From assembly GCA_036478295.1 (NCBI GenBank), contig JAZGDW010000241.1:1-11851 (forward strand): DNA of 11,851 bases, read 5' to 3'. This stretch comes from Candidatus Krumholzibacteriia bacterium. GTDB taxonomy: Bacteria > Krumholzibacteriota > Krumholzibacteriia > WVZY01. How positions within the stretch are numbered: position 1 is the first letter of the stretch; each line of letters begins with the position of its first letter. Below are positions 2 to 11,714 of this stretch, in pieces. The notes beneath the pieces were generated by a model. That model did no database searches, was not told the DNA's origin, and saw only the letters and a list, made by a program, of their open reading frames with translations. The position numbers were made by a program, and so were the translations under genes.

Positions 2-685
2 CGGAGGAAAAAGACGGCCATAGGACAGGGGAAAGTCGGGAATGGCGAGTCCCGCCCCGGTGTGCCGCATGATCGCTCCGAGCAATATCTGCAGGTAGAT
101 CACGCCGGTGGTGACAAGCGAGAGTCGCCGCAGCATGGATGCGTCCGACCTACCAAGTGGAGCTTCCTGCCAGCTCCGTGACGTGACGAGTGCGATGCTC
201 ACAATCGAACCAAAAAAGGCCATGGCCAGGCCGGCGTGACTCACCGACACCAGGGTCGGAAGACGGAGGAGAACGGTGAGCCCGCCCAGCAACGCCTGTA
301 CGATCAGCGCAAGAAACGCTACGAGTCCCAGCCTTCTTACCCAGTTTCTTTTCTCTTTTCGAAACAGCCAGACGGTCAGAACCGTGGTCAGGAGGAGAAC
401 CACACCGGCGATCATGCGGTGGCCGTGCTCGTAGAGAATTCCACCCACCATGGGAGGGAAAAGGGTGCCGTAGGAAAGGGGCCAATCCGGCACGGCGAGG
501 CCGGATCCGGTGCTGGTGACCGACGCGCCGGCGGTCAGCAAGAGCAGCGTCGATCCAGCTACCAGTGCCGCGAATCGATGAAGTCGGAGGTTGTGCGGAA
601 GAGCCGCAACGAGTCCGCGGGACGGGGCGGGTTGACGCCTCTCCGGGATTTCGGAAGTCAGTTTTTCAACGCCTTGGCATTCCAT
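2..685 (-). CDS. ctaA: Heme A synthase (COX15/CtaA family), truncated at its 3' end by the window edge
   Basis: Absent from the ORF track because there is no stop in the window. Manual translation from the ATG at 685 gives ...LHRFAALVAGSTLLLLTAGASVTSTGSGLAVPDWPLSYG...LYEHGHRMIAG...QALLGGLTV...VSVSHAGLA...LQILLGAIMRHTGAGLAIPDFPLSYG. These match the CtaA E-x-x-H-R, QxxLGG and H-x-x-LA motifs. It follows sco in the oxidase operon. The exact start is uncertain. Confidence 0.9.
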   Translation of the reverse strand, partial: MECQGVEKLTSEIPERRQPAPSRGLVAALPHNLRLHRFAALVAGSTLLLLTAGASVTSTGSGLAVPDWPLSYGTLFPPMVGGILYEHGHRMIAGVVLLLTTVLTVWLFRKEKRNWVRRLGLVAFLALIVQALLGGLTVLLRLPTLVSVSHAGLAMAFFGSIVSIALVTSRSWQEAPLGRSDASMLRRLSLVTTGVIYLQILLGAIMRHTGAGLAIPDFPLSYGRLFPP

Positions 686-699
686 GGGCTTGGTTGGAT

Positions 700-1413
700 C
701 TAGCTCTTCTCCCCGTCGCGCCGGACGAGGCGCCGGACATCCTTGCGGAGACGCGCCAGATCTTCTGCGTCAGAACTCTCGTAGTAGCCTCGAATACGTC
801 CCTTGGGGTCCACCAGCGCGAATCGCGGGCTGTGCGTGACCTGCCATCCCGGGCTGGCGCCCGAGTTCTCCTGGACGGTCAGATGAAATCCCTCACGAAT
901 GTAACGGTAGGTCTCCGATTTATCCCCGGTGAGAAAGAGCCAGCGGTCGAGGTCGGCGCCGAGCGTCTTCGCATAATCGGCCAGAATGGCCGGAGTGTCG
1001 TGCTCCGGATCCACGGAAAACGAAACGAGCCGGACTTCCTCCGGCAGGTCGGTCTGAAGCCGGGCCAGCTCCGTCACCGTCATGGGACAAGAAGTCGCGC
1101 AGCGGGTAAAGATAAAGCTGGCGATCCAATAGCTGCCGAAGAGGTCGGATTTCTTAACTGAACGGCCACTGCGCTCGGTAAAGGAGAAATCAGGTACGAC
1201 GCCAAGTATCGGATTCTTGGGTTGCACGCTCGCCCCCACGCCGAATGGCTGGGACAGGTGCGCCATTTTTGACGTCACCCCGTTGATCGTGTTGAGACAC
1301 GCCGCGGCGAGGGTCTCGCGATTCTGAAAGACCCAAATAGACGCGCCCCCAACCGCCAGGAAGGCCACAAGCAAAATACCCTTGTGAAGAGAACCGCGCG
1401 GGCGTGAGATCAT
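700..1413 (-). CDS. sco: SCO1/SenC-family copper chaperone for CuA assembly
   Basis: N-terminal TM helix, FIFTRCATSCP (CxxxC), SFSVDPEHDTP, WLFLTGD, and HSPRFALVDPKGRIRGYY carrying the His ligand. The ATG lies 1 nt after the subunit IV stop. Confidence 0.93.
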   Translation of the reverse strand: MISRPRGSLHKGILLVAFLAVGGASIWVFQNRETLAAACLNTINGVTSKMAHLSQPFGVGASVQPKNPILGVVPDFSFTERSGRSVKKSDLFGSYWIASFIFTRCATSCPMTVTELARLQTDLPEEVRLVSFSVDPEHDTPAILADYAKTLGADLDRWLFLTGDKSETYRYIREGFHLTVQENSGASPGWQVTHSPRFALVDPKGRIRGYYESSDAEDLARLRKDVRRLVRRDGEKS

Positions 1414-1414
1414 G

Positions 1415-1705
1415 TTACCTCACGACTCCAACTTCCGGAGAAATAGCGAGGATAAAGAGCACGGCGAGTACGACGGGCGTAACCGCAAAAATGATAATGG
1501 GTCGAGGTTCGAACCGAAGATGCATGAAGAGAAGCGCGACCAGGAGCGCCTTGGCCGACGCAATCGCAAAAGCGAGAAAGGTCCTCATCCCTTCCCCAAG
1601 GCCGGTGTATGACAGCGCCACCGTCAACCCGGTCAGGACCATGAGCCCGAGAAAAACCATTACGTAGTCCTTGGACGAGAGGCGATGCTTTGCGTGCTCT
1701 GTCAT
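1415..1705 (-). CDS. ctaF: Cytochrome c oxidase subunit IV (prokaryotic COX4_pro type)
   Basis: 96 aa with three hydrophobic segments and the AIASAKALLVALLFMHL motif. AAGGAG RBS. Follows subunit III. Confidence 0.9.
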   Translation of the reverse strand: MTEHAKHRLSSKDYVMVFLGLMVLTGLTVALSYTGLGEGMRTFLAFAIASAKALLVALLFMHLRFEPRPIIIFAVTPVVLAVLFILAISPEVGVVR

Positions 1706-1721
1706 TCTTTCTCCTTGGGGC

Positions 1722-2306
1722 TCAGGTCAGATACAAGAGCGGGAAGAGGAAAATCCACACGACATCCACGAAATGCCAGTACAAGCCCACGTTCTCGACG
1801 ACGAGCGCGTCCATCTTCTGTGAGTTCGCTTTTGCCAGGACCACAGACAGCACAATCACCCCGACCAGGACGTGAAACGCATGGATACCCGTCATGATGA
1901 AGTAGAATGAAAAGAAAAGATTCGTGTGGGCGGTGTAGTGATGCGAAAACTTCTGACCGTACTCCACGGCCTTTACTCCCATAAAGGCCAGTGCCAGGAT
2001 GATGGTGAGGAGAAGAAAGAGTCTCAGCCGCTCCCGGTTGCCCCGTTGAATGGCGCCCACGGCGAGGGCCATGGTGAGGCTGCTCGTAATCAGGATAAAG
2101 GTGTTGAGGGCGCCCAGCGGGCGGTTGAGCAGGCCCGCGGCCTCGGTCATCATCACGAGGTTGGCCGCGCGCAGGTTCACAAAACTGCCTATGAGTCCCG
2201 CAAAGAGCATGACCTCCGAGGCAAGAAATATCCACATTCCCAGCTTGCGGTTGTCGATTCCGGTCACGCCGATGGGCAACAATCGATGGGCCCCGGTCGA
2301 GCTCAT
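1722..2306 (-). CDS. ctaE: Cytochrome c oxidase subunit III (short, about 5-TM form)
   Basis: [23 protein letters not shown] and [19 protein letters not shown] motifs. ATGA overlap with the subunit I stop. Confidence 0.95.
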
Positions 2307-4129
2307 GCCGGCTCACCCTCCTCTACAGGACCGCTCGCCTCGACCGTGATCGGTTCTGCTTGTTCGATCCAGTCGCGTTCGCCGCCGCCGTTACTCGAGT
2401 ATTCATACGGCCAGCGATGGACCGTGGGGATTTCTTCAAAGTTGTGGGAGGGAGCCGGTGAAGCAATGGACCACTCGAGCGTATTGGCCCGCCACGGGTT
2501 CGCCTCGGCTCGCTTGCCCCTGAAGATCGACCAAACGAAGTTCCAGAGAAAGATCAGCTGCGCCGCGCCCAGCACAAAAGCCGAAAGCGTAATGAAGACA
2601 TTCCAATCCTGCATGGGACGGAGGTAGTCGTACACCGTGGGATCCGCTATACGGCGCAGGTGTCCCTGGCTTCCGAGCATGTGCATGGGGAAAAAGACCG
2701 CATTGAAAGAAAGAAACGTCAGTGCGAAATGGATCTTGCCCGCGGATTCCGACATGAGACGCCCGAACATTTTCGGAAACCAGAAATGAATCGCACCAAA
2801 GATGGCAAAGATCGAACCCCCGAAGACGATGTAGTGAAAATGGGCGATAATAAAATAGGTGTCGTGGATATGGATGTCCACAGGAAGGGCCGCCATGAAG
2901 ATCCCGGTCAGTCCGCCGATGATAAAGAGGGAAACGAACGCCAGGGCGAACAGCATGGGTGTTTCAAATCGGAGAGACCCTCTCCACAGTGTTGCCAGCC
3001 AGTTGAAGACTTTGACCCCGGACGGCAGGGCAATCATCATGGTGGCCGTCATGAAGGCCATCGCCATCAGCGGGTTCAAGCCTGCCTGAAACATGTGATG
3101 AGCCCAGACGATAAAGCCCAGACCCATGATGGAGACCATGGCAACCACCATTGCCTTGTACCCGAAGATCGGCTTGCGTGAAAAAACGGGCAGGATCTCC
3201 GAAACGATACCCATGGCGGGCAGAATCAGCACATATACCTCCGGATGGCCGAGGAACCAGAAAATGTGCTGCCACAAAATGGCGCTGCCGCCGCCCGCCG
3301 CTTCAACGGCCATGTCCGCGATCTCCAGCCCGTGGGCCAGAAAGAAACTCGTGCCGATTAACCGGTCCGCTTCCATCATGATGAGGCCTGCGGCCGCCAC
3401 CGGAAAGGAGAGCAACAACAGAACCGCCACCACGAACTGGGCCCAGGTGAGGAGCGGCAAGCGAAACCAGCTCATGCCCGGCGCCCGCATGTTGATAATG
3501 GTGGCGAGAAAGTTCAAGGAACCAAGCGTGAGTGCCACCCACATGAGCCCGAGTGCCAGGATCCACAGATCCATGCCCAGACCCGACCCGGGGACCGCTT
3601 CTTTTAGCACGCTGAGCGGTGGATAGACCGTCCATCCTCCGGCGGCACCGCCTCCGGTCACAAAGAGGCTGGTCAACACGACGGCCCCCGACAGGAAGAA
3701 GACCCAGTAGGAGATCATGTTCAGCACCGGGAACGCCATGTCCCGTGCCCCGACCTGGAGGGGGATGAGAAAGTTTCCGAATCCGCCCACCAACAGGGGA
3801 GCGACGACGAAGAACACCATGATGGTCCCGTGCAGCGTGACCAGCATAATGTAAAATTCCGGGGGCATGGAGCCGCCGCTGTCCGGAAAGAGCAGCTTGC
3901 CGATGAGGGGAATCTCTGCCCAAGGGTACGCCAGCTGCCAGCGCATGAGCATGGCCAGGAATCCGCCGACGAACAGAAAGAATATCGACGTCATCATGTA
4001 CTGTTTGCCGATCATCTTGTGATTCGTGGAGAAGACCCACCGGCGCCAGAAGCTGGTCGGCTCGGGATGCGGAGGTTCGTCGTGGATGGGAGCCCGCACT
4101 ACCTGATTCGCCTGGGGATCGTTCGTCAT
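2303..4129 (-). CDS. ctaD: Cytochrome c oxidase subunit I, A1-type heme-copper oxidase
   Basis: TLHGTIM (low-spin heme His), WFLGHPEVY (CuB His, Glu, cross-linked Tyr; A1 signature), VWAHHMF, AHFHY, D-channel DMAFPVLN and K-channel PSGVKVFNW. Start placed at the ATG at 4129 (MTNDP), which has a GGGAGG RBS and an ATGA overlap with subunit II, rather than at 4144. Confidence 0.97.
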
Positions 4130-4944
4130 ACGCCGTCCTCCCAACCCCAGCCCCAGTCCGCAGGCGGGGTTTTTGCTTTGTATTTATTCTCGAGCCAGGT
4201 TTCGAACTCTTCCGGCGTGTAAACAAAAAGTTGGCCCCGCATACGATAATGGCCGAGACCACAAAGTTCCGCGCATGCGATCTCGTAGGTGCCGGACTTG
4301 TTGGCGTCGAACCATAACAGGATCGTATTTCTCGGACCCGGCAGGACATCCTGTTTCACCCGGAGATTAGGCAGGAAGAAGCTGTGAATCACGTCCAGAG
4401 CCCGGAGCTGGACGAGGACCGGTTTCCCCCGTGGAATATAAAGCTGATTCTTCATGGTCAGGTCGTCCTGCGTGTCAAATACGCCGTCCGGTCCCGGATA
4501 CCTTATGTTCCATTCGAACTGCTGGGCGAGGATTTCCACCCGAATCGCTTCGTCGCTGTCAGGGGCGCGAATCTTTGCGTCGGCCCAGGCGTTCCACTGG
4601 TAAACGGCGAGAACCAGGAGGATAATACCCGGGACGACCGTCCACACGGTCTCCACGGTGGCGTTATCGTGGACGTAGGCGGCCCGACGTCCCGGACGCT
4701 GCCGGTAACGAAAGATGAAAAAGACGAGAACTCCCTGGGTAAGGACAAACATGATCGTGGTGATGACAAAGATCACCCGGTAGAGATGATCGATGTCCTC
4801 ACCGATCGTGGAGACGTTTTCCGGCAGCCACGGTCCCCCGGCGAGCGCCGTTCCGAAAGAACAAAACAGCGCCACGCCAAAAGTAACGACAGACATCAAC
4901 CCAAGTATCCAAAGCGATCGGACACCGGGAGGTCCTTCCCTCAT
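4126..4944 (-). CDS. ctaC: Cytochrome c oxidase subunit II (CuA) with no fused cytochrome c
   Basis: Two TM helices, ETVWTVVP, AQQFEWNIRYPG, DVIHSF and the CuA motif CAELCGLGHYRM. No CxxCH. The start is uncertain: the ATG at 4944 is preferred, and the GTG at 5016 is the longest option. Confidence 0.93.
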   Translation of the reverse strand: MREGPPGVRSLWILGLMSVVTFGVALFCSFGTALAGGPWLPENVSTIGEDIDHLYRVIFVITTIMFVLTQGVLVFFIFRYRQRPGRRAAYVHDNATVETVWTVVPGIILLVLAVYQWNAWADAKIRAPDSDEAIRVEILAQQFEWNIRYPGPDGVFDTQDDLTMKNQLYIPRGKPVLVQLRALDVIHSFFLPNLRVKQDVLPGPRNTILLWFDANKSGTYEIACAELCGLGHYRMRGQLFVYTPEEFETWLENKYKAKTPPADWGWGWEDGV

Positions 4945-5062
4945 AATCCTGGCCCCATGTTCATCGGCAAGCCACCGTCTCCCCGAGAAAGTGCGTTCCG
5001 AACCAAAACGAATCACTCGACAGGCGTCATTGGAGCTGAAGAATACCGAACGTCCGTATCGC

Positions 5063-5872
5063 TCACGATGCGGGCTTGAAGGTAAAGGTGATTTCTTTTG
5101 TTTCTTTTTCGGTGACCGTGACCGTCTGGGTTTGCGTTCCGTATTCCTCGTGCCAGGTCTCTATCACGTATTCACCCGGGGGCAGCGGTGACAGCTCAAA
5201 GGTGCCGTCCTCTCCGGTGACACTGTAATACGGATGACTCACGACCCCGACATAGGCGCCCATCCAGCCATGGACGTCACACTTGATCCTTACCATTGTT
5301 TCGGGTCGCTTGAACTTCTTTGTGGTTTCCATGACCTTGGGCATACCAAAGTTGAACCCGTTACCCCTCTTGGATATGGTGTGGATGTTGTGCAGGACCC
5401 CACCATCGCTGTTCTTGATCTTCAGCGGTTGTTTCGCCTGGATCCCGAATATGTGGGGCTTGTACGAGCAACCGACCTGGTCGAGGACGACCGGCTCGCT
5501 CGGCGGCGGAAATGTCATATCACCGAGCCCGTCTTTTACATAAACAAAAACGTTGCGGAGCGTTCCGTTGTCGTTGACCAGTACGTTCTCTGTATAAAGG
5601 GGGCTTGCCTCGTCGTGGCAGGTTCCTTCGGACGAACGATCCACTAGCTGCATCTTTGGGGGAGTCCCGCTGAAGAGCACGCGGCCGGTTACGGTTGCGG
5701 CCGTCGCTACGTCGACGACAGGCGCCGCGGTCTCTGATTTCTTTGTGGTGGTGGCGACTTCGCCCTCCTCTTTCTCGCCACAGCCGACGGCGAGCGTCAG
5801 ACAAAATATCCCGGCAACAAAAACGGTAAACTTTCCTCTCTCAAACCCTTTACGACTACACGTCCGCTTCAT
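5063..5872 (-). CDS. Lipoprotein with carboxypeptidase-regulatory-like beta-sandwich flanks and a central cupredoxin-like domain
   Basis: Lipobox LAVG|C31 and strong GAGGAGGT RBS. DQVGCSYKPH, HNIH and CDVHGWM give a type-1 copper-like ligand set. The C-terminal VTGEDGTFELSPLPPGEYVIETWHE is typical of carboxypeptidase-regulatory-like domains. First gene of the oxidase operon. Confidence 0.8.
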   Translation of the reverse strand: MKRTCSRKGFERGKFTVFVAGIFCLTLAVGCGEKEEGEVATTTKKSETAAPVVDVATAATVTGRVLFSGTPPKMQLVDRSSEGTCHDEASPLYTENVLVNDNGTLRNVFVYVKDGLGDMTFPPPSEPVVLDQVGCSYKPHIFGIQAKQPLKIKNSDGGVLHNIHTISKRGNGFNFGMPKVMETTKKFKRPETMVRIKCDVHGWMGAYVGVVSHPYYSVTGEDGTFELSPLPPGEYVIETWHEEYGTQTQTVTVTEKETKEITFTFKPAS

Positions 5873-6338: not shown

Positions 6339-6441
6339 TGCTCTTACCCAAGCGGCCCCGCCGTACGAAGACGACCATGGCGACCTGAGGCCGCAACACG
6401 ATCCGCTGTTGACGCGAACGGTTTCATCAGAGAGGAAGTGC

Positions 6442-7689
6442 ATGGTTAGCGCACAAACCTGCTACAAACCCTCGCTGATCTCCTGGAACTTGACGAAGAA
6501 GTGTAACCTCCGCTGCCCGCATTGCTACATGGAAGCGGGCCACAAGGCGGGAGCAGAGCTCACGACGAAAGAGTGCGTGGCCCTGCTCGACGAAATGAAA
6601 GCCCTGGGTACGGAGATGGTGATCCTGACCGGGGGCGAACCGCTCTTGCGGAGGGACGTCTACGACATCGCGCGCTATGCGTCCGGCCTTGGGATGTGGG
6701 TGGTAATGGGTACGAACGGCGTGTTGATTTCGGACCGCGTCGCCCGGAAGCTGGTCGAGTGCGGGATCAAGGGCGTGGGGATCAGTATCGATTCCATCGA
6801 CCCGGAAAAACACGACGGATTTCGTGGCGGGCCGAACGCCTGGAAGTATTCCGTGCGCGCGCTGGAAATCTGCCGGGCGCATGGCCTGGAGGTTCTCGTC
6901 CAGTCCACGGTCATGTCCATGAACTATGACGAGATCCCCGCCTTGATCGATTTCGCCCGTGAGAAAGGTGCGTGGTCGTTCAACCTGTACTTTCTGGTCC
7001 AGACGGGCCGCGGCCAGAAGATGAACGACCTGACCCCGGAGCAGACCGAGGCGATGCTCTCCGACCTGGTCGATGCGCAGGAGCAATACCGCCCGATGCT
7101 GGTGCGCGCCAAGTGCGCGCCGCAGTTCAAACAGATCGCCTACCAGGAGGGCCGAAGTGGCCTGGAGAGCGGCGGATGCATGGCCGGCACGGAGTACGGC
7201 AGGATTACACCCGAGGGGGACGTCACGCCGTGTCCGTACATGACAGTCGTGGCAGGTAACACGCGCGAGCGCAGTTTCACCGAGATCTGGCGGACGTCGC
7301 CGGTTCTGCAGCGGCTCAGGGACTTGAATCAGCTCGGGGGGCGCTGCGGCCGCTGTGAGTTCAACGCCCTGTGTGGCGGCTGCCGCTGCCGCGCCTATGC
7401 GGCCACCGGCGATTACATGCAAGAGGATCCGGCCTGCAGGTATGAGCCGACCGGACAAGCCCTGGAGTTTCCGGCGCTGGCCTGGGACGAAGAGGCCCGC
7501 GCGCGACTGGAGCGAATTCCCATCGCGTTCATCCGGGAAAAGGTGAAGCGCGGCACGGAGACGTATGCCCAGCGCAAGGCGGTCCGCGTGATCACACCCG
7601 AGTTGATGAAAGACGCGCTGTCGGGCGCCGGCAGGCCTGAGGCCTTCAAGCATATGCCCGCCTTTGTGAATCGGAACAGACGTGACTAA
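6442..7689 (+). CDS. Radical SAM/SPASM enzyme, AhbD/NirJ2-like, with a C-terminal PCP_red-like domain
   Basis: SWNLTKKCNLRCPHCY (CxxxCxxC), LTGGEPLLR, TNG, ISIDS..PEKHDGFRG, LVQTGRG and AKCAPQ. SPASM Cys array GCMAG...PCPY...CGRCEFNALCGGCRCRAY...EDPAC. Tail LAWDEEARARLERIP.AFIREKVKRGTETYAQRKAVRVIT. The start is the ATG at 6442 after an AGAGGA RBS, not the ORF-track start at 6211. Confidence 0.85.
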   Translation: MVSAQTCYKPSLISWNLTKKCNLRCPHCYMEAGHKAGAELTTKECVALLDEMKALGTEMVILTGGEPLLRRDVYDIARYASGLGMWVVMGTNGVLISDRVARKLVECGIKGVGISIDSIDPEKHDGFRGGPNAWKYSVRALEICRAHGLEVLVQSTVMSMNYDEIPALIDFAREKGAWSFNLYFLVQTGRGQKMNDLTPEQTEAMLSDLVDAQEQYRPMLVRAKCAPQFKQIAYQEGRSGLESGGCMAGTEYGRITPEGDVTPCPYMTVVAGNTRERSFTEIWRTSPVLQRLRDLNQLGGRCGRCEFNALCGGCRCRAYAATGDYMQEDPACRYEPTGQALEFPALAWDEEARARLERIPIAFIREKVKRGTETYAQRKAVRVITPELMKDALSGAGRPEAFKHMPAFVNRNRRD

Positions 7690-7701
7690 CGGGGAGACAC
7701 C

Positions 7702-8478
7702 ATGACGACGAGAAAGTTGGACGCGAACACGCTGACCCAGCAGGTTCAGGTGTCGGAGGGCATCGCCCAGCTGCACCGCAACGGGAACATACGAGAATTC
7801 GAAATCAAGGAATTGCCGGAGCAGTTCGTGCGCTGGCAGCTGGACTATAAGCACAGCATCTACGACGCGATCGAGCGCGACGAGTACATCGCCTTCAACG
7901 CGGGGCACCTGCCCGTCGTCGCAACCCGTGGTAATGAATCCCTCGTGCCGAACCTGGCGAACAAGGGGGTCGGGTTTACACCCAAGGATGAACACATCGA
8001 TTACTACCTGGATCTGGTCGAGACGGCGGTGGCGCGAATCCAGGAAGTCCCCGAGCACGCCGTAAACGAAACGCGCGATCTTCGTATCAAAACGGCGCGC
8101 GAGTTCTATGCCCACCCGGAGCATATCGACTGGCGGCGGCTGGGTCTGCTGGAGATCTTTGAGGGATCGACGCTGCGAAATCTGAGCGAGAACCCGCTCG
8201 CTTCAGTGCTGTGGACCGGCAACGCGCCGGTCTTCGTCAGTTTTCAAGTGGATTGCGTTGTCGAGATCATCACCCCGGAAGATCCGCGATATCGCTTCGC
8301 CTGGGCCATGCGCCGGCTGTTCGAGTACGAGCCCTTTCACGTCGTTCAAACGATGTACCCTTACTCGTACTGCTTCTGGGTCTACGACTACAAGGACAAG
8401 ACACCCAAGCGCAGGTTCCCGGGCAGACGCAGCGACAACACGGCGAACGACGGGCACGGCAAGATCGACAAATCATAA
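7702..8478 (+). CDS. Pyridoxamine 5'-phosphate oxidase-like split beta-barrel protein; ligand (FMN, F420 or heme) unknown
   Basis: GGGGAG RBS. HLPVVAT...PNLANKG and STLRNLSENPLASVLW...VSFQVDCVVEI resemble the PNPOx-family pattern T-x-x-N-L-x-x-N-P-x-x-S and the following strands. A helical insert lies between them. Confidence 0.6.
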   Translation: MTTRKLDANTLTQQVQVSEGIAQLHRNGNIREFEIKELPEQFVRWQLDYKHSIYDAIERDEYIAFNAGHLPVVATRGNESLVPNLANKGVGFTPKDEHIDYYLDLVETAVARIQEVPEHAVNETRDLRIKTAREFYAHPEHIDWRRLGLLEIFEGSTLRNLSENPLASVLWTGNAPVFVSFQVDCVVEIITPEDPRYRFAWAMRRLFEYEPFHVVQTMYPYSYCFWVYDYKDKTPKRRFPGRRSDNTANDGHGKIDKS

Positions 8479-8531: not shown

Positions 8532-8720
8532 ATGGCATACAAGATCACCGATACATGCACCGCGTGCGATCTCTGTGTGGAGGAATGTCCAATCACCGCG
8601 ATTTCGGTCGGTGATCCGATTTATGTGATCGACCATACGTGCAGTGATTTCAAGGAATGCCTGGTTGTGTGCCCTGTCGACGCGATCGTCGTCGTCGAGG
8701 ACAAGAAACCGGATTCGTGA
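8532..8720 (+). CDS. Small dicluster-type ferredoxin with 7 Cys
   Basis: MAYKITDTCTACDLCVEECP...YVID.TCSDFKECLVVCPVDAI follows the clostridial-type ferredoxin pattern. The second motif has Phe in place of its middle Cys. Confidence 0.9.
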   Translation: MAYKITDTCTACDLCVEECPITAISVGDPIYVIDHTCSDFKECLVVCPVDAIVVVEDKKPDS

Positions 8721-8727
8721 GCTGCCC

Positions 8728-9351
8728 ATGAGATACTCCCATATCACCCCGGAAACCCTCGCTGATTTCATCACCCGGCTCGACGCCGCGTTTGGCAGGC
8801 CCGGGAGCCTGTACCTCATTGGTGAGACGACGCAGGTGTTCGAGGGGTGGCGCCGGTGGACCACGCAGATCGAATTCACTGCAGAGGTTGCCCCGCAAGA
8901 TCGTGAACACTTCTCCCGCGTCGTCCGGGTACTCCGGGAGCAAACGGGTGTCAGGGTTTTCGATGAATCGCCCGGCGATGTCGTCCCGCTGCCCGATGGA
9001 TACGAGACCCGCGCTCGCCCGGCCGGCATGGGCGAGCGTCCAATCGGCGGGACGTTCGTGGGAGACGGTACGCTCGACCATTTGAAACTCTTCCACTTCG
9101 ATCCCTACAGTGTAGCCTTCCGGTTCATCGCCCGGGGCGACGAGCCGGACTACCATCTGGTCCTGACGTTCCTGGAGCAAGGGTGGGTGACGGTGGCAGA
9201 GATGAACGCCAAACTGGAGGAACTGCTCCCTCGCTTTACGGCCGAATCCATTCAGCAGGACCCGGCGGAATTCCGCCGCAAGTGTAAAGGTCTGCTGCAG
9301 ATGTGGCACAGCGGACGACCGCGCGCCACACATCGGATGACGACGGTCTGA
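8728..9351 (+). CDS. DUF6036-like nucleotidyltransferase-fold protein with a degenerate active site
   Basis: LYLIGETT..FEGWRRWTTQIEF, ESPGDVVPLPDGYETRA and HFDPYSVA..IARG.EPD resemble the DUF6036 pattern as I recall it (xYLxGG...WRxxTxDID; SPxDFIPLPxGWxxR; DPYSxALSK). Start at the ATG at 8728, 7 nt after the ferredoxin stop. Confidence 0.65.
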   Translation: MRYSHITPETLADFITRLDAAFGRPGSLYLIGETTQVFEGWRRWTTQIEFTAEVAPQDREHFSRVVRVLREQTGVRVFDESPGDVVPLPDGYETRARPAGMGERPIGGTFVGDGTLDHLKLFHFDPYSVAFRFIARGDEPDYHLVLTFLEQGWVTVAEMNAKLEELLPRFTAESIQQDPAEFRRKCKGLLQMWHSGRPRATHRMTTV

Positions 9352-9394: not shown

Positions 9395-9766
9395 ATGCAC
9401 GAAGAGGTCCCGGACATAAACTGGAACGAGTTACAATTCCTGAGCTGGGGTGAATTCAAACACACGGTTCCGTCTATCCTTCAACTGGAGGTGACCCGGC
9501 TCGGCAAGTTGATGGGGGTCTTCTCGGGGGATACGGATCTACACAACAGCGTTGTACGCGCGCGGTTCGCCTTGAAGCAGTTTATTTCTTGCGTGGAACG
9601 GTCGCAAAGGGACGCTCTGGAAGAAAGTAGTAGCGCTCACCTTCGCACGGCGATTATGAATTTGTCATTTCCGCCGCGAGACCTGGACGCGCAAACGAAA
9701 GAGACGCTCAGCTATGTTCTCGACAGGTTGAACTACGTTTACTGCAGGATCGGCCTCATCTATTAG
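9395..9766 (+). CDS. Hypothetical protein, 123 aa, probably all-helical
   Basis: GGAG RBS 10 nt upstream. It fills the gap between co-oriented genes and shows amphipathic helical patterning. No family recognised. Confidence 0.7.
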   Translation: MHEEVPDINWNELQFLSWGEFKHTVPSILQLEVTRLGKLMGVFSGDTDLHNSVVRARFALKQFISCVERSQRDALEESSSAHLRTAIMNLSFPPRDLDAQTKETLSYVLDRLNYVYCRIGLIY

Positions 9767-9782: not shown

Positions 9783-11714
9783 ATGTACCAGAAGATCTTT
9801 GTCCCCGTCGATAATTCCGAGCACTCCATGGCTTGCATCGATGTGGCCGTCCACCTGACAAAAAAATTCGATGGCAGTCTCGTGGGCAGCCATGCCTACG
9901 CGGCCAAGCTGCACGACTACCGGTTCAAACAGATGGAGTTTACGCTGCCGGATGAATATCTTGTCGAGGGCGAGATGGAGAAACAACGGAAAACTCACGA
10001 CACTTTGATTTCCATGGGTCTGGAGTTGATCTCGGATTCCTATCTCGTGGTCATGGAGGAGAAGTGCAAGGAGGCCAACCTTCCTTTCGAGCCGAAGATG
10101 TACGACGGCAAGAATTTCAAGATCATCGTGGAGGATATCAACGAGAGTGACTACGATCTCGTTGTGATCGGCGCCCTTGGCCTGGGTGCCGTGCGGGATA
10201 GCTTGATCGGCAGCGTCTGTGAGCGAGTGGTCCGCAGGGTAAAAACCGATACGCTCGTTATCAAGAACACGGCGCCGATCGAGGAACAGATGCGAGCGAA
10301 CGGAAACGGGCAGGGTGAACATGGAGGCGGTATCCTGGTGGGCCTGGACGGCAGCCCCGAGTCTTTTGCCGGCTTGAAAACAGCTCTGGCGTTGGGCAAG
10401 GCTCTGAACAAGGAAGTCGAAGCCGTGTCCGTGTATGATCCGTATCTGCATTATGCGATGTTCAACAGCCTCGTCAACGTGCTCACCGAGAAGGCAGCCA
10501 AAGTATTCAAGTTCGCGGACCAGGAACAGCTGCACGAGGAGGTCATCGACACTGGGCTCGCCAAGATATACCAATCCCACCTCGAGGTGGCCCGGCGTAT
10601 GGCGGAAGAGGACGGGGTCGATTTGAAGATCACGCTGCTCGACGGGAAAGCGTTCGAAAAGATGCTCCATTATGTGCGCAGGGAGAAGCCCTGGCTCTTC
10701 GTACTGGGAAGGATCGGGGTCCACAGTGATGAGGATATGGACATCGGCAGTAACACGGAAAACCTTCTCCGGATGGTGCCGTGTAACGTCTTGCTTTCGA
10801 GCCAGAGGCATACGCCGCCCCTGGACGTCAGGGCGGAGGAATCCATGTCGTGGACGGAACCGGCCACCCGACTGGTGAACCGGGCGCCCGGCTTCGCGCG
10901 CGGTATCGCTCGCACCGCCGTCAACCGCTGGGCCATGGAACGGGGTCATTCCGTGATTACCTCGAAGATTGTCGAACAGACCATGTCGACCATGCTGCCC
11001 CAATCCGCCATGCAGTCGATGGGGATCGTTGCGGAGGACTACGCCAAGGAGAAAATTGATTTCGAGACGACTGAGACGTACGTGTGCAGCGTGTGCGGTT
11101 ATGCTTCACGCGGGATCAAACCGGCGGTCTGCCGGGTATGCGATGCGCCGGCCGATAAGTTCCAGCAGCTGGACAAGGAAGCCATCAAGAACCTCATCCC
11201 GTTGGAGGGTGGCGTCGAAGAGGAAGAAACCTTCGACAACGTGAAGTTGAAATGGACGGCCGACGCAAGGGAAGCCCTGCGCGAGGTGCCCGCAGGGTAT
11301 CAAAGAAGACGGGCGCGGGCGCAGATTGAGAAAAGCGCACGCATGAAAGGGGTCTCAACGATCACCAAAGACCTGGTGCTGGAAGTGGCTGGGGTGACCA
11401 TGGAGGATACCAAGAACCTGGAGGAACCCGGCAAGCTGAGCAAAACCGCCGTCGTCGCAGAGGAGGGTCCGCACGACGGGCAGGAACTCGTCAAGGACGG
11501 CAAATTCTCGTGGACCGCTGAAGCGATGGTCAGGCTGAATCGCGTTCCCGAGGGATTCATGCGCAACATTACCAAGGGCCGGATCGAAACGTGCGCGGAG
11601 TCGAAAGGTGTCGAGGTAATCACACTCGCCGTCGCCGAGGAAGGCATCGCCGTGGGCCGCAAGATGATGGAAGAGATGGTCAGCGATTACAAAAAGAACG
11701 GGCGAGTCAGTTAG
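9783..11714 (+). CDS. Multidomain universal stress protein: USP-USP-PCP_red-rubredoxin-PCP_red-PCP_red
   Basis: AAGGAGG RBS. Two USP domains (KIFVPVDNSEHS; ILVGLDGSPES), each with a G-x2-G-x9-GS ATP-binding motif. Rubredoxin-like YVCSVCGY...PAVCRVCDAPADKF. Three W-T-x-x-A...P...IT PCP_red-like repeats. Confidence 0.88.
   Translation: MYQKIFVPVDNSEHSMACIDVAVHLTKKFDGSLVGSHAYAAKLHDYRFKQMEFTLPDEYLVEGEMEKQRKTHDTLISMGLELISDSYLVVMEEKCKEANLPFEPKMYDGKNFKIIVEDINESDYDLVVIGALGLGAVRDSLIGSVCERVVRRVKTDTLVIKNTAPIEEQMRANGNGQGEHGGGILVGLDGSPESFAGLKTALALGKALNKEVEAVSVYDPYLHYAMFNSLVNVLTEKAAKVFKFADQEQLHEEVIDTGLAKIYQSHLEVARRMAEEDGVDLKITLLDGKAFEKMLHYVRREKPWLFVLGRIGVHSDEDMDIGSNTENLLRMVPCNVLLSSQRHTPPLDVRAEESMSWTEPATRLVNRAPGFARGIARTAVNRWAMERGHSVITSKIVEQTMSTMLPQSAMQSMGIVAEDYAKEKIDFETTETYVCSVCGYASRGIKPAVCRVCDAPADKFQQLDKEAIKNLIPLEGGVEEEETFDNVKLKWTADAREALREVPAGYQRRRARAQIEKSARMKGVSTITKDLVLEVAGVTMEDTKNLEEPGKLSKTAVVAEEGPHDGQELVKDGKFSWTAEAMVRLNRVPEGFMRNITKGRIETCAESKGVEVITLAVAEEGIAVGRKMMEEMVSDYKKNGRVS

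Follow-up and report, generated by a model that had tools for sequence, protein, structure and literature searches.

Tandem universal stress proteins (USPs) of known structure are the closest described relatives of the protein studied here. It is encoded on an 11,851-nucleotide stretch of DNA from a Candidatus Krumholzibacteriia bacterium (contig JAZGDW010000241.1; the whole stretch is called the window in the following), and we refer to it as the four-His USP after four histidines (H44, H72, H223, H251) in its two USP domains. Its best fold match is Rv2623 (PDB 3CIS/2JAX; Z 28.9, root-mean-square deviation (rmsd) 3.0 Å over 279 residues), and TTHA0350 (3AB7/3AB8; Z 25.9, rmsd 2.6 Å over 238 residues) has the same tandem fold as well. 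Both share with the four-His USP the motif G-x2-G-x9-GS and the strand-1 Asp in both domains. In the accessible part of PMC2682197, G-x2-G-x9-G(S/T) is the defining motif of ATP-binding USPs, and the Rv2623 homodimer is described to juxtapose its ATP pockets, which is likewise predicted for the four-His USP. With regard to sequence, the four-His USP is only 16-23% identical to the two proteins. It differs from them by longer hairpins after strand 2 with four invariant His, by an additional His in the second ATP loop, by PCP_red and rubredoxin-like tails, and by its linkage to haem and oxidase genes.

UspE and YdaA (4R2J, 5CB0, 4WY2) also show the tandem USP fold (Z 24.1 for 4WY2) at 14-16% identity. 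The accessible text of the USP review PMC10003552 reports zinc binding by YdaA's N-terminal domain and a hydrophobic ligand cavity in UspE; unlike for the four-His USP, that text describes no four-His hairpin for either. A further related system is the dark-operative protochlorophyllide oxidoreductase (DPOR), since the C-terminal PCP_red domain (PF08369) of its BchB/ChlB subunit is present in three copies in the four-His USP. According to the part of PMC12022308 that is accessible, DPOR provides a precedent for a His-based metal site at a two-fold axis, with His and Met on one helix. In contrast to DPOR, the four-His USP has no nitrogenase-like body and is found in a respiratory, not photosynthetic, context.

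HemW, ChuX/HutX and GAPDH are haem carriers or chaperones with unrelated folds, whose job, i.e., to bring haem from the synthesis enzyme to its clients, is like the one proposed below. To our knowledge, none of them is a USP and none has an ATP-faced His pocket made by two chains.

As judged by conservation, the four histidines are a real, well-defined candidate functional site on a known fold. We lean towards porphyrin binding at this site, be it in a carrier or in a sensor. Our favoured specific reading, put forward tentatively, is that the tandem USP with its predicted inter-chain four-His pocket may be an ATP-gated carrier of haem b or coprohaem in a module for haem synthesis and oxidase maturation.

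Domains and conservation of the four histidines

The following features are observed or, in the case of the helical hairpins, predicted for the four-His USP (homologue counts refer to the alignment introduced below).

9783-11714, + strand: four-His USP protein, 643 amino acids (aa), with the order USP-USP-PCP_red-Cys4 rubredoxin-like knuckle-PCP_red-PCP_red
9783-10265, + strand: USP domain 1, aa 1-161 (Pfam PF00582; structure model)
9891-9893, + strand: H37, an invariant His that matches the His ending USP strand 2
9900-10073, + strand: predicted hairpin 1 made of two helices (41-50, 62-97), aa 40-97; carries H44 (9912) and H72 (9996)
10170-10214, + strand: ATP motif G-x2-G-x9-GS of USP1, G130-S144 (motif in 297/315 homologues)
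10332-10802, + strand: USP domain 2, aa 184-340 (Pfam; structure model; gapless domain alignment)
10437-10610, + strand: predicted hairpin 2 made of two helices (221-231, 244-276), aa 219-276; carries H223 (10449) and H251 (10533)
10707-10751, + strand: ATP motif G-x2-G-x9-GS of USP2, G309-S323, holding H314 (10722) (motif in 266/315 homologues)
10827-10976, + strand: PCP_red domain 1, about aa 349-398 (Pfam)
11079-11165, + strand: Cys4 rubredoxin-like knuckle, C435, C438, C450 and C453 (Pfam score just below cut-off)
11253-11384, + strand: PCP_red domain 2, aa 491-534 (Pfam)
11511-11642, + strand: PCP_red domain 3, about aa 577-620 (Pfam; limits taken from sequence)

The open reading frame (ORF) is preceded by AAGGAGG. 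Pfam PF00582 scores 117 bits over two stretches of the protein (gathering score 24) and thus places it among the USPs; the five-stranded USP fold is supported by the model as well as by fold searches. Both USP domains carry the ATP motif, as already seen in the sequence-only reading of this DNA, and each has its strand-1 Asp (D10, D189). That is, both show the sequence features of the ATP-binding USP class (MJ0577/Rv2623 type). The Cys4 knuckle is dispensable in the family, given that such a motif is found in 115/119 close and in 16/117 distant homologues. UspE was considered as a more specific identity and rejected, as the respective NCBIfam model (NF008380) scores 25.7 bits at a curated cut-off of 227.

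The codons of H44, H72, H223 and H251 start at 9912, 9996, 10449 and 10533, with 27 residues within each pair. The sequence-only reading had reported these positions, the identical spacing and a gapless pattern shared by both domains, and all three are as described. When the 46-aa segments of USP1 and USP2 are aligned without gaps, 12 identities are observed, a value reached by 2/100,000 shuffles. The complete domains, however, align without gaps as well (40/155 identical, 26%), and identity within the insert (13/51) is not above that of the cores (10/36 and 17/70). The equal spacing is therefore a trace of tandem duplication, which alone would yield it, such that the spacing is real but does not stand as a special signal. 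From the homologues, we conclude that the actual signal is the family-wide conservation of the four His.

This conservation was assessed in a pooled alignment of 315 near-full-coverage sequences out of 374 candidates (59 partial sequences dropped; effective depth 122 at 80%). Individually, the four His are kept in 313/315 homologues each; 311/315 have all four, and in 306 of these 311 the spacing is unchanged. The invariance that had been suggested as a test is thus nearly complete. The four exceptions show unrelated sequence or gaps over the entire segment and look like hybrids or frameshifts. Similar results are observed for 94 representatives of 50%-identity clusters that cover both USP domains (32-64% identity; drawn from 150 listed of 247 clusters), where each His is kept in 92/94. 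All four His are also present in 15/15 family loci from metagenomes (16 loci returned) and in a 50%-identical paralogue of the same genome. Other histidines are kept less well, H24, H180, H296 and H343 in 4-14%, H14 in 69% and H266 in 83%, whereas the invariance of the four His matches that of the ATP-binding glycines.

These numbers bear directly on the simplest alternative, namely a generic stress USP in which the His are structural or conserved by descent. It would fit the canonical fold and the database entries, which name the protein just 'universal stress protein'. Still, an invariance on par with the ATP-binding glycines at 32-64% identity, the low retention of four other His (4-14%), the sharp E-value gap between the four-His family and ordinary USPs (1e-42 to 1e-18) and the fixed gene context all speak against it, and we regard it as very improbable.

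The inserts after strand 2 are unusual in length as well, as proposed before. In either domain, the strand-1 Asp and the ATP-loop Gly are 120 aa apart, which is also the family mode (93/112 domains measured), compared to a median of 97 in ordinary USPs (73 domains from 61 of 93 ordinary USPs). That is, the insert is about 23 residues longer than usual.

Two further invariant histidines had been overlooked, namely H37 (314/315) and H314 (313/315). A strand-2 His equivalent to H37 occurs in many ordinary USPs of the outgroup, and V41/H42 of Rv2623 line the adenine pocket (accessible part of PMC2682197); H37 is probably not part of the new site. H314 (10722-10724) is located in the ATP loop of USP2 where USP1 has a Gly. 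We consider it a candidate for a role across chains, either in phosphate sensing or in catalysis.

Predicted dimer and inter-chain pocket

Next, we studied structure predictions. The AlphaFold2 model of aa 1-345 (107 sequences) is a tandem USP with a predicted local distance difference test (pLDDT) of 93.8 and a predicted template modelling score of 0.91. For each insert, two helices are predicted, a short one (41-50; 221-231) and, after a loop, a long one (62-97; 244-276), in accordance with the two helical hairpins anticipated from the letters. Beside the His, the conserved residues are R47, F48, E52, L55, P56, R69, L75, I76, G79 and I83 in hairpin 1, and D219, P220, F227, L234, F242, Q247, L250, I255, D256 and G258 in hairpin 2.

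A homodimer predicted from two chains, two haems and two ATP reached a score of 0.78, compared to 0.00 for the best of 3 controls; the pass mark used for this score is reached by 20/30 solved pairs and by 1/23 single chains. The dimer runs agree in at least 62% of contacts, with a partner pLDDT of at least 79. In the predicted arrangement, the chains lie head-to-tail and the ATP-loop ends of USP1 and of USP2' (primes denote the other chain) meet (144-323', 148-323'). L43, K110 and H314 are placed in the ATP-face interface, where H314 would touch K110 of the other chain. Furthermore, hairpin 1 is predicted to lie against hairpin 2' (contacts 79-230', 83-226' and 51-262'), and this predicted crossing carries the small residues G79 and G258. 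A head-to-tail dimer of this kind is predicted to have two pockets, each formed by both chains. The hairpins thus seem to converge as had been expected, with the difference that the predicted meeting takes place between hairpin 1 and hairpin 2 of two chains in a homodimer. In accordance with these contacts, covariation ranks S144-S323 first and R47-Y263 second, while it is noisy below the top ranks.

The location of the four His themselves was investigated in three ways. First, helical wheels place them 25-76 degrees off the partner-facing side. Second, they are absent from the listed chain-chain contacts of the two-haem run, in which their helical neighbours are listed; we read this absence as uncertain rather than as proof of a gap. 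Third, crude rigid-body models were computed, either with four restraints from helix register (first model; two of them dropped in its second run) or from covariation and predicted contacts only (second model). The four His Cα are within 13-18 Å, with H44-H72 at about 8-10 Å. For the second model, 21/198 solutions were accepted, and the His span is among the tightest 12-15% of helix A/B residue pairs. The models agree on the clustering of the His but not on which pair faces which. From these predictions, the four His would converge on one inter-chain, mostly hydrophobic pocket.

What such a pocket may bind is reflected in the residues conserved in both hairpins, namely H, F, L, Q, I and G; neither an acid nor a Cys is common to both halves. 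Given this combination of shared His and hydrophobic residues without a shared acid or Cys, we infer that a flat hydrophobic ligand is favoured over a bare ion. The alternative is that the His bind metal, either in two His2 sites or in a dinuclear Cu/Zn/Fe site at the pseudo-two-fold axis, which would make the protein an ATP-dependent metallochaperone for oxidase copper centres or iron. A cis pair would suit the H44-H72 distance within one hairpin, which is about 8-10 Å in all crude models, and E52, D219 and D256 are conserved nearby. Precedents are the di-Cu site that His404/Met408 form at the two-fold axis of BchB in DPOR, a likewise PCP_red-bearing system (PMC12022308, accessible part), and the zinc-binding tandem USP YdaA (PMC10003552, accessible part). 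On the other hand, the acidic residues are unmatched between the halves, D219-P220 is located where a helix begins, the conserved surroundings are hydrophobic, and a span of 13-18 Å is too wide for one ion held by four His without closure. Overall, we consider metal binding unlikely.

The predicted ATP face raises another alternative, i.e., that the inserts enlarge the nucleotide pocket or form a catalytic site (for ATP hydrolysis, cyclic di-AMP or diadenosine tetraphosphate, flavin or a small substrate) with no porphyrin involved. Strand 2, which in Rv2623 contributes to the lining of the adenine pocket (accessible part of PMC2682197), leads directly into helix 41-50, L43, K110 and H314 are part of the predicted ATP-face interface, and cAMP- and c-di-AMP-binding USPs exist (PMC10003552, accessible part). 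However, the long helix carries H72 and H251 25 residues ahead of strand 3, on the face that contacts the hairpin of the other chain. This explanation also leaves the haem-related gene context unexplained, and we think it rather improbable.

The PDB sequence search returned ordinary USPs only and the Atlas search generic USP clusters only. In the fold searches, no haem or metal protein was matched better than the USPs, which says nothing against the site.

Gene neighbourhood, fusions and family range

The neighbourhood of the four-His USP gene within the window is composed as follows.

2-5872, - strand: divergent haem-copper oxidase operon with a carboxypeptidase-regulatory-like protein, subunits II, I, III and IV, SCO and a CtaA-like protein (cut by the window end)
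6442-7689, + strand: radical SAM/SPASM enzyme with C-terminal PCP_red, NirJ2/AhbD-like (start codon inferred)
7702-8478, + strand: split-barrel protein (PNPOx/HupZ/HutZ-like fold) with helical insert (structure model, pLDDT 87; otherwise unannotated)
8532-8720, + strand: small 4Fe-4S ferredoxin (Pfam/NCBIfam; in 54/80 related loci)
8728-9351, + strand: 207-aa protein without Pfam/NCBIfam family (in 27/80 loci)
9395-9766, + strand: 123-aa protein without Pfam/NCBIfam family (in 56/80 loci)

That is, the four-His USP gene closes a run of genes for the radical SAM/SPASM-PCP_red enzyme, the split-barrel protein, the ferredoxin and two unknown proteins, which is divergent from the oxidase operon. 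The best NCBIfam matches of the radical SAM enzyme are NirJ2 (350 bits) and the AhbD haem b synthase (TIGR04545; 314 bits), both below the cut-off of 500 bits. For the radical SAM neighbours in four related loci, the best match is always AhbD or NirJ2, with AhbD at 298-332 bits and thus below the cut-off. Judged by these scores, the enzyme may work like AhbD without being filed as such.

Among 80 related loci, mostly from Rhodothermales but also from Methylomirabilota/Rokubacteria, Poribacteria, Acidobacteria and Deferribacteres, the AhbD-like radical SAM gene is found in 68/80, cox1 in 34/80, the split barrel in 25/80 and SCO in 5/80. When 91/172 ORFs (from 7 of 9 chosen loci) were annotated with Pfam, 6 loci were additionally seen to encode an Mrp/NUBPL ATPase; 4 have a small PCP_red protein and 2 a CopD-like one. 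For distant family members, 75/113 ORFs from 12 of 16 metagenome loci were scanned. Here, locus L101 encodes a four-His homologue of 37% identity, with ahbA and ahbB (each above its NCBIfam cut-off) at a distance of about 6 kb, along with an ahbC-like and two ahbD-like genes, a cupredoxin, a bd-type oxidase subunit and an ABC transporter. It is a contig from a fermentation metagenome (L101:1-12624), in whose assembly the two ahbD-like genes seem to carry frameshifts. L088 encodes cytochrome b as well as a bd-type subunit, and cytochrome or haem domains together with a radical SAM gene are found in L091 and L099. Taken together, the AhbD-like neighbour, the oxidase operon and ahbA/ahbB beside a homologue make the gene context haem-related.

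With regard to the window's genome (91% complete), hemE and ferrochelatase were found, while there is no match to ChdC, HemF or AhbA/B. AhbD can finish the coproporphyrin route (accessible part of PMC7242693), and the gene set would fit an AhbD that ends this route. The siroheme (AhbA/B) route was found neither in this genome nor in the genomes of 5 relatives, such that the arrangement of L101 is not general.

The neighbourhood also bears on the metal alternative. SCO, CopD-like, cupredoxin and cation-efflux genes in related loci would suit a metallochaperone, but the most constant neighbour is the AhbD-like enzyme and not SCO.

The split-barrel protein provides a further link. Its invariant residues are W45, H69, K88, E151, R204, E208 and H213, and it is fused to the four-His USP in 5/150 representatives, namely at the N-terminus in P0146, P0154 and P0155 and at the C-terminus in P0145 and P0220. 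Fusions at both ends imply at least two events; on a quick tree, the fused representatives are scattered, each with unfused neighbours. Haem binding of HupZ, which has a related fold, depends on its tag. The fused split barrel could also be a flavin enzyme, which would suit the above explanation by a nucleotide or catalytic site.

A permanent haem sensor is the second porphyrin-based possibility beside the favoured carrier. It would report haem level, oxygen or redox state coupled with the ATP level, and regulate the radical SAM enzyme or oxidase assembly via the PCP_red tails. The structural evidence is the same as for the carrier, USPs are commonly regulatory, and response-regulator genes are located directly upstream in L088 and L090. 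Moreover, Nitrospira marina shows increased levels of four UspA proteins, which may or may not belong to the four-His family, at low O2 (accessible part of PMC8115632). Yet no DNA-binding, kinase or cyclase output domain was found among 40 long homologues scanned, and the split-barrel fusion together with the linkage to Mrp and ferredoxin suggests a biosynthetic or handling role. We therefore judge a sensor to be quite unlikely.

The family is of considerable size. A representative search yields 247 clusters at 50% identity with E-values up to 1e-30, whose named members include Manganitrophus and Nitrospinota; a homologue (P0070) is also known from Rhodocaloribacter litoris. At E-values up to 0.001, 5133 homologues are counted, a number that may include ordinary USPs. 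The family is present in 49/81 genomes that were sampled for the phylum to which one Methylomirabilota genome belongs. A sample of 200 other genomes of the window's own phylum contained no family member. The contig's composition ranks 11/87 and is thus no clear outlier, such that composition does not decide between transfer and misbinning.

Some further observations concern single genes. The paralogue mentioned above is encoded on contig C276 of the window's genome (L002/L086), is 50% identical and cut by the contig end; moaA-, moeA-, TauE- and PALP-family genes are found upstream of it. A second haem-copper oxidase operon is located on contig C38, with subunits II, I and III being 32-42% identical to those of the window. 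In 37/80 loci, the secreted carboxypeptidase-regulatory-like protein (5063-5872, - strand) is encoded either close to the USP gene or at the head of the oxidase operon; it also stands beside the paralogue (L002:1561-2292) and has five copies in the window's genome. The 207-aa protein (8728-9351) gives the impression, and only that, of a degenerate nucleotidyltransferase-like fold. Finally, a 565-aa frame antisense to the radical SAM gene (6427-8124, - strand) has no Pfam match and an NCBIfam hit far below cut-off; it is most likely a shadow frame.

A haem carrier as favoured reading and its meaning

For the favoured ATP-gated haem carrier, we envisage the following mechanism. Each pocket would hold one Fe-porphyrin with one His pair as axial ligands, while the other His pair, together with R47, R69, Q68 and Q247, would hold the propionates. 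Binding or turnover of ATP at the neighbouring face, with H314 reaching K110', would open and close the hairpins. By means of its PCP_red tails, the carrier might bind to the AhbD-like enzyme, which bears PCP_red too, and would then hand the porphyrin on towards the oxidases and cytochromes encoded nearby. The idea of an ATP-gated cofactor chaperone or sensor had already been raised in the sequence-only reading. It gains from the invariance of the His, the predicted hairpins and their predicted meeting as well as from the haem context, and changes in one point, as the pocket is predicted to lie between chains. A more far-reaching version, which we consider possible but rather doubtful, is that this is the first haem-binding USP family, with an ATP-driven two-chain clamp that shuts its four His around coprohaem or haem b, PCP_red docking on an oxygen-independent haem synthase and delivery to haem-copper and bd-like oxidases.

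Several observations weigh against a haem carrier. Concerning the structure, the weaker dimer run (run 2 of three) scored 0.56 with 33 confident contacts, and the complex prediction reports no haem placement. Since the predicted dimer resembles the solved Rv2623 dimer, its pass may partly come from likeness or memory. Covariation is shallow (effective depth 122) and uses largely the same sequences as the folds, with R47-Y263 resting on one clade. The rigid-body models disagree on the pairing, i.e., the Cα distance of H44-H223' is 7-13 Å in the first and 16-18 Å in the second. Concerning the genes, the radical SAM enzyme scores under the 500-bit cut-off of AhbD, and a ChdC/Cld-family match in 4/5 genomes tested means that the radical SAM enzyme need not be their haem synthase. 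The counts over 80 loci come without a background control, from many incomplete loci and from kin that are not independent. No haem or oxidase gene is seen among the ORFs scanned in L087 and L090, nor among those scanned in the 14 kb upstream of the C276 paralogue. For the split barrel, the fold matches to binders of haem, FMN, FAD and F420 are of roughly equal quality (Z 12.3 to 10). Finally, we found no precedent for a haem-binding USP, and the accessible text of the USP review PMC10003552 has no occurrence of 'heme'.

Literature searches, with most subscription journals outside their coverage, returned no description of the four-His USP family, and the accessible text of a preprint on the bd superfamily (bioRxiv 10.1101/2021.01.16.426971) contains neither 'universal stress' nor 'radical SAM'. 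The present analysis contributes the predicted two-chain hairpin arrangement, the outgroup control of insert length, the invariant H314, the fusions with the split-barrel protein and the locus with ahbA and ahbB.

Most members of the very large USP family bear the label 'stress protein' without a mechanism. Within it, the four-His subfamily is big and has a sharply defined invariant site. If the site binds metal instead of haem, it would still be a new ATP-coupled metal site on the USP fold. If haem is bound, the family would reveal the path of haem from its synthesis to the respiratory enzymes of sponge symbionts and of lineages that oxidise nitrite, methane and manganese, and PCP_red would gain a role outside chlorophyll synthesis. 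The carrier, if true, would then supply a missing step of intracellular haem trafficking in Rhodothermales, Methylomirabilota, Poribacteria, Nitrospirota and Nitrospinota.

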